This document shows positions 2,726 through 29,510 of a DNA stretch of 64,000 nucleotides, piece after piece. A model generated the notes under the pieces. The model had not been told where the DNA came from and made no database searches. It was given only the letters and a program-made list of their open reading frames with translations. A program made the position numbers and the translations under genes. Each line of letters opens with the position of its first letter. The first letter of the stretch is position 1. Origin of the DNA: a virus (lineage: Duplodnaviria > Caudoviricetes); the IMG/VR virus record IMGVR_UViG_3300031949_000016, positions 22,692-86,691 of that record. The stretch is one strand, 5' to 3'.

Positions 2726-3620
2726 GAGATAATCCCCATCCTGGGGAGGAATTGATGAACTCCTCAATCCGCGCCCTGATCTGATAGCCCAACAACTCGC
2801 CCTCTTTATCGTTCTCCTCCGCCGTCCCGTAATGATTCATGAACATCTTCGGAACGCCAATCGACAAAAGTGCGGCATTCACGACGTTAGTGACATCGTG
2901 TGCCATCGTCCCTCTATAGAACGGCTCGACAACTACCACCTTACCAGACCGGCAGTGGTCTATAATCGCCTCGAAATCGAACGGCACCACCGTCGTGTAA
3001 TACAACACCGTCACATCCAGATACTTCGTCGCCTCCATCACCCGATCCAGCATCGGCCCCACCGCGATGACGGTCGCCAGCGTTCCCCGCTTCACCACCA
3101 CCGCCTTCCCGAAATCGATCGGGCTGCAACTCATCGCATTGCATCGCTCACTCAGCCGGAAGTACGTCGGCCACAGGTCGTCATACGCCCACTTGAACAG
3201 CTGGTCGAACTCGTCCGGCGTCCCCGGCACCACAATCTCCATGACCGGCAGCGTCTTCAACAACGCCACGTCCCCCGGCGCATGATGCGTACACCCCAGG
3301 CTAGCATAGTCATACGATGCGCCCACGCTAACGATATTCACCGGCAATGATTGGTAGCACACATCGTCCTTCAACTGCTCGAAACACCGCTCCACCGCGA
3401 ACGGCGCGATCGTATGAATGACGGGTCGCAGCCCCTCCATCGCCAGCCCCGCCGCCAATGACACCATCGCCTGCTCGCAAACCCCAACGTTGATCACGCG
3501 CGCCGGCCACTTTTCAGCCGCCTCCCGGAACCCCCACACCCCGATGTCGCCCAGCAGCAGCACCAGCCGCTTATCGTGCGCCATCAACTCCATGATCGTC
3601 TTAACGAATTGCTTCCTCAT
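2712..3620 (-). CDS. Transketolase-like protein, pyrimidine-binding/C-terminal half
   Basis: LLGDIG, INVGVCEQAMVSLAAGLAMEG, LGCTHH. Confidence 0.9.
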   Translation of the reverse strand: MRKQFVKTIMELMAHDKRLVLLLGDIGVWGFREAAEKWPARVINVGVCEQAMVSLAAGLAMEGLRPVIHTIAPFAVERCFEQLKDDVCYQSLPVNIVSVGASYDYASLGCTHHAPGDVALLKTLPVMEIVVPGTPDEFDQLFKWAYDDLWPTYFRLSERCNAMSCSPIDFGKAVVVKRGTLATVIAVGPMLDRVMEATKYLDVTVLYYTTVVPFDFEAIIDHCRSGKVVVVEPFYRGTMAHDVTNVVNAALLSIGVPKMFMNHYGTAEENDKEGELLGYQIRARIEEFINSSPGWGLSHVRL

Positions 3621-3650
3621 CCCTTTGCTTCTTTGCCCCTTTGCGTGAGA

Positions 3651-4493
3651 TCATTCCAACTCTGCCAGAATAGCCGTCAGTTCCTCTTTGTTCGGTGCCC
3701 GATGATGCCACGCCGGATTGTTCTCCATCTCCTTCACCCCGTTGCCCTTGATCGTGTTTGCCACAATCACCACCGGCTGATGCTCCGGCTGCCACTGCAT
3801 AGCCGCCACAATAGATTTATGGTCATGCCCGTTGATGCTCACATCGAACCACCCAAACGCCCGAAACTTCTCCGCGATATTCCCCATCCGCAGCGCCCGG
3901 TCCGTCGAGTGGTTATAGTCCACAATGACAGTAAGATTGCCTAATTCATGATGCGCCGCCAGCAGCGCCGCTTCCCAGATCGAACCCTCGTTGCACTCCC
4001 CATCACCCACCAGCACCACCACCCTACTTGCCCCATCCCCTTTGCCCCTTTGCCCCTTTGCGTGAGCCTCTTTTATCTTCAACCCTAACGCCATCCCCAC
4101 GCTCATCGGCAGCCCGTGCCCCAGACTCCCCGTGCTCGCCTCAACCCCCGGCACCTTATTCCGATCGGGATGTCCCCCCAGCCTGCTATCGAACTGTGCG
4201 AAGCCCTCCAATTCATCCACCGGAAAGAACCCCTTCTCGGCCAACACCGCATACAGCGCCAGGCAACCGTGCCCCTTGCTCAGTACGAACCGATCCCGCT
4301 CCTCCCACCGTGGCTTCTGTGGATCGACCCGCAGCACCTTGTCATACAGCACCCACACCAAGTCCAGGATACTCAGTGCGCTGGCGATGTGCCCCTCGCC
4401 GGCCTCGTATGCCATCTGCACGATCCGCCTCCGTAAATTGTTGAGCACCACCGCGCCACCCTCCCCTTGGAGTGGAAGTTGAAGTGCGTCCAT
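3651..4493 (-). CDS. Transketolase-like protein, ThDP-binding N-terminal half
   Basis: GHIASALS, RFVLSKGH, STGSLGHGL, GDGECNEGSIWEA...DYN; start at ATG 4493 behind GGAG. Confidence 0.9.
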   Translation of the reverse strand: MDALQLPLQGEGGAVVLNNLRRRIVQMAYEAGEGHIASALSILDLVWVLYDKVLRVDPQKPRWEERDRFVLSKGHGCLALYAVLAEKGFFPVDELEGFAQFDSRLGGHPDRNKVPGVEASTGSLGHGLPMSVGMALGLKIKEAHAKGQRGKGDGASRVVVLVGDGECNEGSIWEAALLAAHHELGNLTVIVDYNHSTDRALRMGNIAEKFRAFGWFDVSINGHDHKSIVAAMQWQPEHQPVVIVANTIKGNGVKEMENNPAWHHRAPNKEELTAILAELE

Positions 4494-26919: not shown

Positions 26920-26936
26920 TTGCTTCTCCAAAATAA

Positions 26937-26998
26937 AACGCGCCGACTGTTTGGGCAGTTCTGTGTGACTGCCCAAAGTCGGCGCGTTGTTGTCCGTT
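26937..26998 (-). promoter_or_regulatory. Conserved leader hairpin, copy 1 (attenuator-like)
   Basis: AACGGACAAC-AACGCGCCGAC...GTCGGCGCGTT-TTATTTT directly upstream of the giant gene. Confidence 0.55.
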
Positions 26999-27089: not shown

Positions 27090-27118
27090 TTGACATGCAC
27101 ACGCAGCGCGTATATAAT
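27090..27118 (+). promoter_or_regulatory. Consensus sigma70 promoter of the RAMP cassette
   Basis: TTGACA-17-TATAAT; ATG 6 nt downstream. Confidence 0.85.
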
Positions 27119-27124
27119 GTACGC

Positions 27125-27334
27125 ATGAAGACCATACGCCTGACCGATGAACTCTACCGGCAACTCGCCGAACGTGCAAAACGAACACACCGCTCGATAA
27201 ACTCCGAGGCTGTGTTCGCGGTTGAATCCTATCTCATAAGCGTTTCGGAATCCATGCCAGAAATACCCCGCGAAGACGCGCCACCCATCAAGCGACGGCG
27301 TTCTCGAATGCCGACCAACCATCCTAATCCATAA
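27125..27334 (+). CDS. Arc-like ribbon-helix-helix regulator, leaderless
   Basis: MKTIRLTDELYRQLAERAKRTHRSINSEAV. Confidence 0.8.
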   Translation: MKTIRLTDELYRQLAERAKRTHRSINSEAVFAVESYLISVSESMPEIPREDAPPIKRRRSRMPTNHPNP

Positions 27335-27352
27335 CACGAAAGGATAAGTATC

Positions 27353-27907
27353 ATGTACGTCATCACGGGAGAAATTCAGGGGGTTGCACCATTGCTGTTC
27401 AACAAGATGCTGGAAGGCGAACTCGAACAAACAGCGTCCAGCAAAACCCTCAAGGGCCGCGTGACCGTTGAAGACCGCATCGCGGAAGCGGAAAACCGAG
27501 TGTATCGAAACGAGGCTGGCATCATTTACCTGCCGGGTTGGAACTTCAAGCAATGCCTGTTGGAAGGCTGCCGACGCTCCGGCCTCAAAGTCGGGCGCGG
27601 TTCACTGATGCCCTATCTGCAAGCCGCCGTGTTTCCCGATCGGGAATTGTATTTCTCGAACCGGAAGACGCACGATTTCATGCACGAGAATTGGGGCCGA
27701 CGGCCCCCGCGCACCGGCGGCGCATGTATGGTCAGGCGTCCGGCGCTCAAGGAAGGCTGGAAGTTGGCCTTCAACCTGAACATCGTCGACGATCGCCGTC
27801 ACCCCGAAGAGATCAAACGCTCGCTTGAAGAAGCCGGCCTGCTCGTCGGCATCGGCTCGTGGCGACCGGAGTACGGTCGCTTCATCGTGACAAAGTTTGC
27901 ATCTTAG
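27353..27907 (+). CDS. Solitary Cas7/RAMP-like protein (Vipr-like candidate)
   Basis: N-terminal strand plus GVAPLLFN, IYLPGWNFKQCL, Gly-rich loop GLLVGIGSWRPEYGRF; flanked by pentamer arrays. Confidence 0.7.
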   Translation: MYVITGEIQGVAPLLFNKMLEGELEQTASSKTLKGRVTVEDRIAEAENRVYRNEAGIIYLPGWNFKQCLLEGCRRSGLKVGRGSLMPYLQAAVFPDRELYFSNRKTHDFMHENWGRRPPRTGGACMVRRPALKEGWKLAFNLNIVDDRRHPEEIKRSLEEAGLLVGIGSWRPEYGRFIVTKFAS

Positions 27908-27918
27908 AACTTGAATAA

Positions 27919-27983
27919 TGCGCGGCATGGCCGGGCGTAGCCTGGCCGGGCTCGGCAAGGCTAAGCAAAGCAAGGCAAGGGCA
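27919..27983 (+). repeat. Pentamer array 1, (NGC-NN)12 plus GGG; candidate guide RNA
   Basis: 8 GGC, 3 AGC, 1 TGC at exact 5-nt period in intergenic DNA. Confidence 0.85.
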
Positions 27984-28003
27984 TCACAACAAGAAGGAGA
28001 ATC

Positions 28004-28312
28004 ATGGACCGTGACAGCAAACGCTTGGAACCCATTATCGACCCGGCGATCAACGCCATTCGATCCATCCTGACGGACGGCGAGCACACCGACAACGAGA
28101 TCACCGCCGCCCGCATCGCCAGCAGTGTTCTGGCCACCTGGTCTAAACTCAAGCAAAGCGAGCGCGCGCAAGAAGCCGTCTACTTTGCAATGGCCCGCGA
28201 ACTCGCGCAAGATCAGGAACAACTCGCCAAATACATATCGATGACCCTGCCCGATGTTCCACTGGTCAGAGTCCTCGACGCCAAGAAGTTGCCCGCTCCA
28301 AAGAAGAAGTAA
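28004..28312 (+). CDS. Hypothetical helical protein between the two arrays
   Basis: Strong AAGGAG RBS; ORF track. Confidence 0.75.
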   Translation: MDRDSKRLEPIIDPAINAIRSILTDGEHTDNEITAARIASSVLATWSKLKQSERAQEAVYFAMARELAQDQEQLAKYISMTLPDVPLVRVLDAKKLPAPKKK

Positions 28313-28316
28313 ACGC

Positions 28317-28386
28317 GGCAATGCTCGGCATGGCGTAGCAAGGCGAAGCACGGCATGGCGTAGCGAGGCGAAGCCCGGCAGGGGAC
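28317..28386 (+). repeat. Pentamer array 2, (NGC-NN)13 plus GGG; candidate guide RNA
   Basis: 8 GGC, 4 AGC, 1 TGC at exact 5-nt period in intergenic DNA. Confidence 0.85.
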
Positions 28387-28398
28387 GTAACAAGATCT

Positions 28399-28429
28399 AA
28401 CGCGCCAACGACTTCATCGCAGGCGCGTT
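28399..28429. terminator. Hairpin between convergent transcription units
   Basis: AACGCGCC...GGCGCGTT inverted repeat. Confidence 0.5.
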
Positions 28430-28486
28430 GGTTAATTCACCAATTACTAATTACAAAGTTCCCGTATACTGTCTGGACCAGTTATC

Positions 28487-29350
28487 TCAAATTCTCCACG
28501 TCATCATGTTGTACCACCAGTCGGCCGGTTTGCTAGGCCCGTAATCAGGGTAGGACGGATACGGATACCCACCTCCGCCATACCCTCCACCGCCTCCACC
28601 CCCCGTATACGCCGGCATCGCCACCGGCTCTTCATTCGCCAGCCCCAGCCGCGCCTTATCGTACTCCCGCATCCTCACCCGCAAGTCCTCGATGTCGTAC
28701 ATATTATCGGGTGCTGGCTGCAGTCGCGCGGCCTCGTTCGCGGTCAGTTCGCTGCGCAGGATCGGCGGAGTCTGCGGCGCGAAGTGCATCCCGCGCGTCG
28801 CCGGACTGCCCGGCAGCAAATACAACGGTGGCTCGGCCATCCCCGGCACCGGCTGCCCGCTGCCCCCCGGCAAATCATAGTACGCCGTTGGCACAGCCGG
28901 ATACAGTCCTCCGCCTTCTCCGAACGCCCGCATCTTCCGTGCGTAAGCCGCCGTCGAAAATGGATTGTTTGGATCGAAAAATGGCGCAGCCGATGCCATC
29001 TCTTGCGCACTGACAGCACCCACCGGCCCAGAATACAGCGGCCGGCCTCGGATGTCCAGCGCATACTGCGGATTCATGACGCTGGCTTGACTTCCGAACC
29101 TGCTTTGGAATGCCGGCGGGATATTGCCCCGCCCCCCGCCTCGCCCGCGAAACCGCATCGCCTCAATATCGCCCGGACTCGGCACCCGATTGCGCGCCGT
29201 CAGCGTTGAAGATACCGGTTTTTGTGGGGTCGGCCTCCACCTGCTGCGCAAATCCTCGATGTCCATTAGACCACCCTTCGTCGGCGGAGTCGGCATCCGT
29301 TCCTTATTCATGAATCGCCGATATAAATCCTTCCAATCGTCGTAGGCCAT
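28487..29350 (-). CDS. Pro/Gly-rich hypothetical protein, possibly virion-associated
   Basis: ORF track; start moved to MAYDD at 29350. Confidence 0.65.
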   Translation of the reverse strand: MAYDDWKDLYRRFMNKERMPTPPTKGGLMDIEDLRSRWRPTPQKPVSSTLTARNRVPSPGDIEAMRFRGRGGGRGNIPPAFQSRFGSQASVMNPQYALDIRGRPLYSGPVGAVSAQEMASAAPFFDPNNPFSTAAYARKMRAFGEGGGLYPAVPTAYYDLPGGSGQPVPGMAEPPLYLLPGSPATRGMHFAPQTPPILRSELTANEAARLQPAPDNMYDIEDLRVRMREYDKARLGLANEEPVAMPAYTGGGGGGGYGGGGYPYPSYPDYGPSKPADWWYNMMTWRI

Positions 29351-29483
29351 GAGATAATCCCCCTCTCTTGGTGGGATGAGATAATCCCCCTCTCTTGGTG
29401 GGATGAGATAATCCCCCTCTCTTGGTGGGATGAGATAATCCCCCTCTCTTGGTGGGATGAGATAATCCCCCTCTCTTGGTGGG
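29349..29483 (+). repeat. Perfect 27-bp tandem repeat, 5 copies
   Basis: ATGAGATAATCCCCCTCTCTTGGTGGG x5. Confidence 0.95.
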
Positions 29484-29510
29484 ATGACTTCACCCCCCAT
29501 TCACCATTGA

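Follow-up and report, generated by a model that had tools for sequence, protein, structure and literature searches.

Known systems closest to the locus

VIPR is a CRISPR-like system of RNA-guided DNA silencing that consists of the Vipr protein, the vap accessory gene, and guide RNAs termed vrRNAs (bioRxiv 10.64898/2026.04.26.720920, 10.64898/2026.04.26.720927, and 10.64898/2026.10.15.759431). A vrRNA is built of 9-16 GGY/NN pentamers followed by a tail (2026 VIPR bioRxiv preprints); the alternative repeat forms NNNGG, YNNNG, and NNNNG are stated in the discovery paper (2026 bioRxiv), and staggered arrays with overlapping vrRNAs have been reported (2026 VIPR bioRxiv paper). In SUSP1, each unit is bound by one Vipr protomer, with the first base of the triplet, G1, read by H17 and D177, the second, G2, by R138 and W178, and the third, Y3, accommodated in a pocket of which R179 is part; the NN dinucleotide pairs with DNA, every third base of which is skipped (2026 VIPR bioRxiv).

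The best structural match of the Vipr homolog analyzed here is the Cas7 backbone of class 1 CRISPR systems (Csm3, Cmr4, and type VII Cas7), with which it shares the RAMP fold. In both systems, one protomer covers a fixed number of guide bases and a thumb breaks the pairing periodically, but the period is 5 in VIPR, with three bases hidden, and 6 in the Cas7 backbone, with one base flipped. A further layout of this kind is known from the TRAP binding sites of Bacillus, where about 11 triplets spaced 2-3 bases apart lie on an mRNA leader. The likeness of these sites to the locus studied here is limited to the layout: the protein fold is unrelated, TRAP recognizes GAG/UAG triplets in place of RGC, and the TRAP spacer bases carry no information.

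The locus belongs to a soil virus whose genome is a single 86.7-kb (86,691-base) contig. The analyzed stretch of 64,000 nucleotides is referred to as the window, and coordinates are positions in the window unless a related locus (L001, L002, and so on) is named. VIPR is already known from the 2026 preprints, and the locus adds a soil-phage member to it. It resembles the type II VIPR of SUSP1 and Felixounavirus in the homologous Vipr protein, in the arrays of conserved triplets and hypervariable NN dinucleotides that flank vipr and a small accessory gene, and in being encoded by a virus without a CRISPR array or other cas genes. It differs from them in the scaffold triplet, which is RGC rather than GGY/GGT; in the residues S169 (of the G-loop) and N17, which are D177 and H17 in SUSP1 Vipr; in the accessory protein, which has 102 aa and three helices and is unrelated in sequence to the 146-aa neighbor of vipr in wV8; in the tail, which is short and only in part common to both arrays, in contrast to the long, invariable pseudoknot tail of the SUSP1 clade and to the long conserved tail of wV8, which is absent here; and in the Arc-like repressor gene that heads the cassette. 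Unlike class 1 CRISPR systems, the locus has no repeat-spacer array, no Cas6, Cas5, Cas10, or Cas11, and no adaptation genes.

The features of the locus are as follows.

27090-27118, plus strand: predicted promoter of the plus-strand cassette (TTGACA, 17 nt, TATAAT; 12 of 12 consensus matches)
27125-27334, plus strand: Arc-like ribbon-helix-helix gene, first in the cassette (Pfam PF03869, Arc)
27353-27907, plus strand: vipr gene, 184 aa, minimal RAMP protein (profile match to PDB 36pp_D; predicted model)
27919-27981, plus strand: array 1, 12 units, then GGG
28004-28312, plus strand: candidate vap accessory gene, 102 aa, conserved beside vipr
28317-28384, plus strand: array 2, 13 units RGC-NN, then GGG
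28327-28351, plus strand: copy 1 of the duplication in array 2, units 3-7 (Tandem Repeats Finder; unit shuffling)
28352-28376, plus strand: copy 2 of the duplication, units 8-12, with changes relative to copy 1 at 28365 and 28375
28382-28431, plus strand: 3' tail of array 2 (AACAAGA motif and a 10-bp hairpin at 28397-28431)

On comparative grounds, we consider array 2 to be a VIPR guide-RNA (vrRNA) gene of the cassette at 27090-28431 that carries an in-phase duplication of five units, and assign to this reading a probability of about 0.8. The ancestor implied by the duplication would be an 8-unit guide, below the published minimum of nine units, which counts against this explanation, as does the short tail that arrays 1 and 2 have only partly in common.

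Vipr homolog and accessory gene

The profile of the 184-aa protein family (39 members) matches PDB entry 36pp_D, "SUSP1 Vipr protein", with an E-value of 7.7e-16 over residues 4-177 of 184. The best Foldseek matches of its AlphaFold model (pLDDT 92.8) are Cas7-family RAMPs, namely Cas7, Csm3, and type VII Cas7 (E-values from 3e-7 to 1e-5). No Pfam family was found for this protein, which matches phrog_4652 (E-value 4e-17) and in tblastn searches is about 29% identical to its Felixounavirus homologs; its closest protein relatives are 70-73% identical. Members of the family show almost no variation in the G-loop GIGSWRPEYGRF. Other PHROG matches in the genome are a phage helicase and an FtsK-like protein, and relatives are found on IMG/VR contigs.

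In all seven IMG/VR relatives that were fetched first (L001-L007; 40-61% identity), period-5 GC arrays lie directly beside the gene, and these loci also carry a homolog of the small helical protein. An array beside vipr is also present in most of the other relatives whose sequence extends far enough to show one, and the arrays of more distant relatives, retrieved by the profile search, are of the canonical GGT-NN or of the CGC-NN type. The Vipr homology and the arrays beside the gene in the seven relatives thus indicate that the locus is a VIPR system and that array 2 is a vrRNA guide gene. The two arrays, with 12 and 13 units, are inside the published range of 9-16, and both are on the vipr strand. 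Read from the sequence in the published register, the RGC-NN unit is YNNRG and lies inside the stated YNNNG form. In Escherichia phage wV8 (L082; NC_012749.1, 57566-63126), the Vipr homolog and its neighbor are annotated as hypothetical proteins, and the label direct repeats DR_4 is given to the guide tails; GGT-NN arrays are visible there at 2200-2400 and 3590-3800 of the fetched locus.

The 102-aa gene is kept beside vipr in at least 12 related loci, and a conserved helical gene of 90-107 aa always accompanies vipr in the clade. The model of the 102-aa protein (pLDDT 84) consists of three helices; no match to it was found in Pfam, among PDB sequences, or with Foldseek. Since this protein also shows no similarity to the product of the 146-aa gene beside vipr in Felixounavirus wV8, the system probably does not belong to type II, the form found in SUSP1.

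Among the neighboring ORFs, Pfam yielded no matches to further cas genes, the only match being PF03869 of the Arc-like gene. Tandem Repeats Finder detected no tandem array of CRISPR-repeat length beside the vipr cassette; the only longer tandem array in the window is a 27-nt repeat at 29349-29487 (unit ATGAGATAATCCCCCTCTCTTGGTGGG, 5.1 copies, 100% identity), which lies within the minus-strand ORF 28487-29500 or at its start.

Cassette organization and array ends

The plus-strand cassette sits amid minus-strand genes, including an ORF of 7000 aa; this ORF (5974-26976, minus strand) takes up one third of the window. The predicted promoter is a perfect sigma-70-type sequence by consensus match only. 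The Arc-like gene, which matches PF03869 with an E-value of 3.5e-5 and 24 bits (cut-off 20.4), has an ATG at 27125, just past the promoter; the listed ORF starts at TTG 27077.

The dinucleotide GC recurs at a strict period of 5 in at least six units at two sites of the 86,691-base genome, with 12 and 13 units, respectively, compared with a mean of 0.04 sites in 50 base shuffles. A looser scan revealed no further convincing array on either strand of the genome, and no Rfam family covers either array. The units of array 1 (27919-27978), with the NN dinucleotides GC AT CG GT CT CG TC AA TA AA AA AA, are placed after the stop codon of vipr and ahead of the ribosome-binding site that serves the 102-aa gene. 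Array 2 starts 5 bases past the stop codon of the latter. Its units (28317-28381) are GGCAA TGCTC GGCAT GGCGT AGCAA GGCGA AGCAC GGCAT GGCGT AGCGA GGCGA AGCCC GGCAG, that is, plus-strand triplets (G/A/T)GC, each followed by two free bases. The NN string given for it in the original prediction, AA TC AT GT AA GA AC AT GT GA GA CC AG, proved exact when the sequence was read again.

Both arrays end in GGC-AR-GGG followed by AACAAGA, and the similarity of the two ends that had been proposed is confirmed (GGCAG GGG in array 2 vs GGCAA GGG in array 1); in the relatives, the tails are particular to each locus. In array 1, GGG and AACAAGA are present without a hairpin. The region 28377-28450 after array 2 folds with a z-score of -3.25, and one of 200 shuffled sequences folds equally well. 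The genome contains recurrent hairpins built on AACGCGCC...GGCGCGTT, at about 26935-26995 and at 28397-28431. The hairpin after array 2 is a member of this recurring family and probably acts as a two-way terminator between convergent genes.

The first 15 bases, AATGCNCGGCATGGC, are common to the two arrays (27917-27931 and 28320-28334). The second duplicated block of array 2 starts with the pattern GGCAT GGC..GT AGC as well. The common start may be a 5'-end or processing motif, or a trace of shared descent of the two guides. Over the whole length, array 1 is no more similar to array 2 than to unrelated arrays; only the ends are shared.

The closest relative among the fetched loci is L020, with a Vipr protein 67% identical to that of the window. 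It contains six tandem guides (L020:949-1508), each of which has GGCAA GNCAA GGCAA as its last units, with a tail after them that starts with GGRTA; the start of the tail is GGRTACTGCTATC in the first four of the six. Given the constant A-rich guide ends in L020, the A-rich last units of array 1 are probably constant as well, rather than target-reading.

Internal duplication of array 2

The five-unit internal duplication in array 2 is real. The repetition of units 3-7 as units 8-12 with all triplets kept and two changes, both in NN positions, as described in the original prediction, was confirmed base by base: A at 28340 corresponds to G at 28365, and A at 28350 to C at 28375, each at the first N of its unit. 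The two 25-base blocks are 92% identical as DNA, and Tandem Repeats Finder reports array 2 with a period of 25, 2.2 copies, 93% matches, and a score of 96. When the order of the units was shuffled, a pair of five-unit blocks with at most two NN mismatches arose in 0.66% of 5000 trials (p = 0.0066).

The bases at position 1 of the units follow the same pattern, G G A G A, in both copies, for which the chance was estimated at about 0.03 from the position-1 frequencies of 0.64, 0.28, and 0.08; elsewhere in the clade, the preceding base predicts position 1 only weakly. Because position 1 is not paired with the target and its pattern was nevertheless copied, a duplication at the DNA level is favored over an independent matching of each block to a repeat in the target. 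The location of both differences on NN positions has a probability of 0.15 by chance, and so carries little weight by itself.

Internal duplications of this sort are rare among the VIPR-type arrays compared: block repeats were found in three of 103 arrays at p <= 0.01 and in seven of 103 at p <= 0.05, which is close to expectation. The main text of the 2026 VIPR papers contains no mention of internal duplication of guides. The length differences that we observed amount to whole units, namely 25 bases in array 2, 5 bases when the 5' parts common to arrays 1 and 2 are compared, and 15 bases for the upstream guides of the related loci L024 and L025. Such whole-unit indels fit slippage or unequal exchange between in-phase triplets, and selection for phase would give the same outcome. 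The proposal that arrays grow by slippage is thus weakly supported: the real duplication and the whole-unit length changes speak for it, and the block repeats in only three of 103 arrays and the difference between L024 and L025, which looks like a guide replacement, speak against it. The one clear case and the whole-unit indels taken together give a slight indication of such growth.

Scaffold and variable positions across the clade

In 348 units from 30 distinct arrays of the clade, the entropy is 1.37 bits at position 1, 1.91 bits at position 4, and 1.96 bits at position 5, and position 1 is a purine in 92% of the units; the invariance of positions 2-3 in this sample is partly built in, as GC was used to find the arrays. 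The entropy comparison across homologous arrays that had been suggested as a check gives NN positions close to the maximum and a position 1 that is 92% purine. In the 25 units of the window, G2 and C3 are invariant, and at position 1 G accounts for 64% and A for 28%.

The related loci L024 and L025 provide a direct comparison. Their vipr genes differ at three of 558 bases (99.5% identity), and their downstream guides with tails at one of 95, the downstream guides themselves being identical. In the upstream guide (L024:282-326 vs L025:187-246), 11 of 18 NN positions differ, compared with one of 27 triplet positions (Fisher p = 3e-5), and the number of units is nine in L024 and 12 in L025, a three-unit length change of 15 bases. 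An equal distribution of substitutions over triplet and NN positions, named beforehand as an outcome that would contradict the division of the unit into structural triplets and specificity-carrying dinucleotides, is thus far from being observed in this pair. That division is supported by the Vipr homology, the published mechanism, the NN entropies of 1.91 and 1.96, and the L024/L025 comparison. The homology between the two loci breaks off just upstream of the guide leader, and the sequences farther upstream are unrelated; the difference between them looks like an exchange of guide cassettes at a recombination boundary rather than gradual mutation.

In the HMM alignment, residues R138, W178, and R179 of SUSP1 Vipr, which contact G2 and Y3, correspond to R129, W170, and R171 of the 184-aa protein, whereas H17 and D177, which contact G1, correspond to N17 and S169 (the S169 codon of vipr is at 27857-27859). 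The retained R129, W170, and R171 fit the invariant G2 and C3, and N17 and S169 fit the relaxed R at position 1. Among the related loci (L001-L066), where D stands at the position of SUSP1 D177, position 1 is G in 83-97% of the units of the close clade; in the fetched loci, the units are A-rich where this residue is A or G and mixed where it is S. This link between the G-loop residue and the first triplet base, drawn without correction for relatedness, is suggestive and could be a natural specificity switch.

Target searches

When both arrays were compared with the whole genome at 0-3 skipped bases, no self-target was found, with nothing above the controls except the match of the arrays to themselves at a skip of three. 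The best own-genome match at a one-base skip, 17 of 26, is the same as in the 0- and 2-base-skip controls. The absence of self-targeting has been reported for other VIPR systems (2026 VIPR bioRxiv). In the 66 related loci, a match of 19 of 26 was found inside the vipr gene of L004; it lies with mismatches over the nearly invariant EG of helix 1, the controls reach 18, and we do not regard it as a target.

The public collections were scanned for exact patterns only, so that targets with an 80-95% match could escape these scans. The full pattern of array 2 has no exact match in viral_contigs or genome_contigs, and none was found for units 5-13 of array 2 or for units 1-9 of array 1. Units 1-9 of array 2 gave two giant-virus matches that do not extend past the seed (18 of 26). 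Units 3-12 gave Clostridium (21 of 26) and Oceanicola MAG (22 of 26) matches in genome_contigs, where about one is expected by chance, and units 3-11 gave 11 matches in viral_contigs, mostly on AT-rich contigs, the best of which (23 of 26, in L080) is not significant given the number of seed hits. The gapped search proposed for array 2 has thus returned nothing beyond chance in its own genome, in the related loci, or in the exact-pattern scans of public collections. Arrays 1 and 2 may encode different targets, as originally proposed; these searches yielded no target for either.

As a control of the method, the 18-unit GGT-NN guide L038:610-699 matches L052:3704-3756 at 32 of 36 NN bases with one base skipped; neighboring offsets give 10-15. 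The match is in frame with an ORF for a 167-aa membrane protein (L052:3422-3925), and the skipped bases are aligned with the wobble positions. We take the pair to be a natural cross-target between two VIPR-bearing metagenome contigs.

Alternative explanations

The repeat within the guide might mirror a tandem or near-tandem 15-bp repeat in the target, for example one encoding the pentapeptides I-V-K-D-T / I-V-E-E-P, and would then reflect selection for matching and not array growth. A precedent for such mirroring is provided by the L038 guide, whose quasi-repeats (GT TT AT GT / GT TT AT AC) recur in the hydrophobic coding sequence of L052, and coding sequences resembling IVKDTIVEE do occur in public viral contigs, including a true tandem ETIVK repeat (L076). 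Yet position 1, which is unpaired with the target, has an identical pattern in the two copies (p about 0.03), the identity of 92% extends over whole 25-base blocks of DNA, and no repeat-bearing target reached significance, the best matches of 23 and 22 of 26 being in line with chance given the number of seed hits. We consider this origin of the repeat unlikely. Little credence can be given to the alternative that array 2 arose by fusion of two guides or consists of two nested (staggered) ones, in which the second block would start a six-unit guide with a common 3' tail. Staggered arrays with overlapping vrRNAs are described in the VIPR paper, the start AATGCNCGGCATGGC is common to arrays 1 and 2, and GGCAT GGC(CG GGC)GT AGC opens array 1 as well as both blocks; however, neither a tail nor a hairpin separates the blocks, a guide of six units would be shorter than any reported, and the related locus with six guides (L020) has no conserved 5' units.

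It is improbable in the extreme that the arrays are not guides at all and represent mRNA sites of a TRAP-like ring protein, a site acting at the DNA level (for packaging, as a centromere, or as an origin), or a decaying pentanucleotide microsatellite. The 11-13 triplets with two-base spacers do resemble a TRAP binding site, and array 1 is located just upstream of a ribosome-binding site. However, the adjacent protein is a homolog of Vipr and the RAMPs and does not have a TRAP-like fold, which disfavors sites of a TRAP-like ring protein; the invariance of GC in all 25 units combined with nearly random NN is not expected of a decaying microsatellite; and the arrays travel with vipr across clades in which the scaffold triplet changes (RGC, GGT, CGC), with the identity of position 1 tracking the G-loop residue of Vipr. 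The preferred reading remains that array 2 is a vrRNA gene with an in-phase duplication at the DNA level.

Proposed mechanism and implications

We infer how the locus would work, including the transcription of the arrays, the RNA ends, and the processing in the phage, from its likeness to SUSP1. The cassette at 27090-28431 would comprise the promoter, the Arc-like repressor gene, vipr, vrRNA 1, the small helical accessory gene, vrRNA 2, and the terminal hairpin. By homology with SUSP1, one Vipr protomer would bind each 5-base unit and hide the RGC triplet, and the 13 NN pairs would be presented to double-stranded DNA and base-pair with it, skipping every third base of the DNA. The pairing may silence a gene of a competing mobile element. 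As for the history of the guide, a segment of 25 bases, exactly five units, would have been duplicated in phase at the DNA level, extending the guide from 8 to 13 units, and the two copies in array 2 would since have diverged at two NN bases.

An in-phase block duplication followed by NN changes might be one way to lengthen and retarget VIPR guides, and a guide duplicated in this manner could be bivalent; we offer this tentatively, as rather unlikely. In a bivalent guide, the near-identical five-unit blocks could read two allelic forms of one 15-bp site, AT-GT-AA-GA-AC / AT-GT-GA-GA-CC.

VIPR represents a recently described class of RNA-guided DNA recognition and is thought to be older than CRISPR. 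The particulars of this locus are the RGC scaffold, the distinct accessory protein, the suggestive covariation of the G-loop with the first base of the triplet, and a guide with a clear duplication of whole units. They leave the knowledge of the class unchanged, and they are useful for cataloguing the diversity of VIPR systems and for engineering their scaffold specificity.
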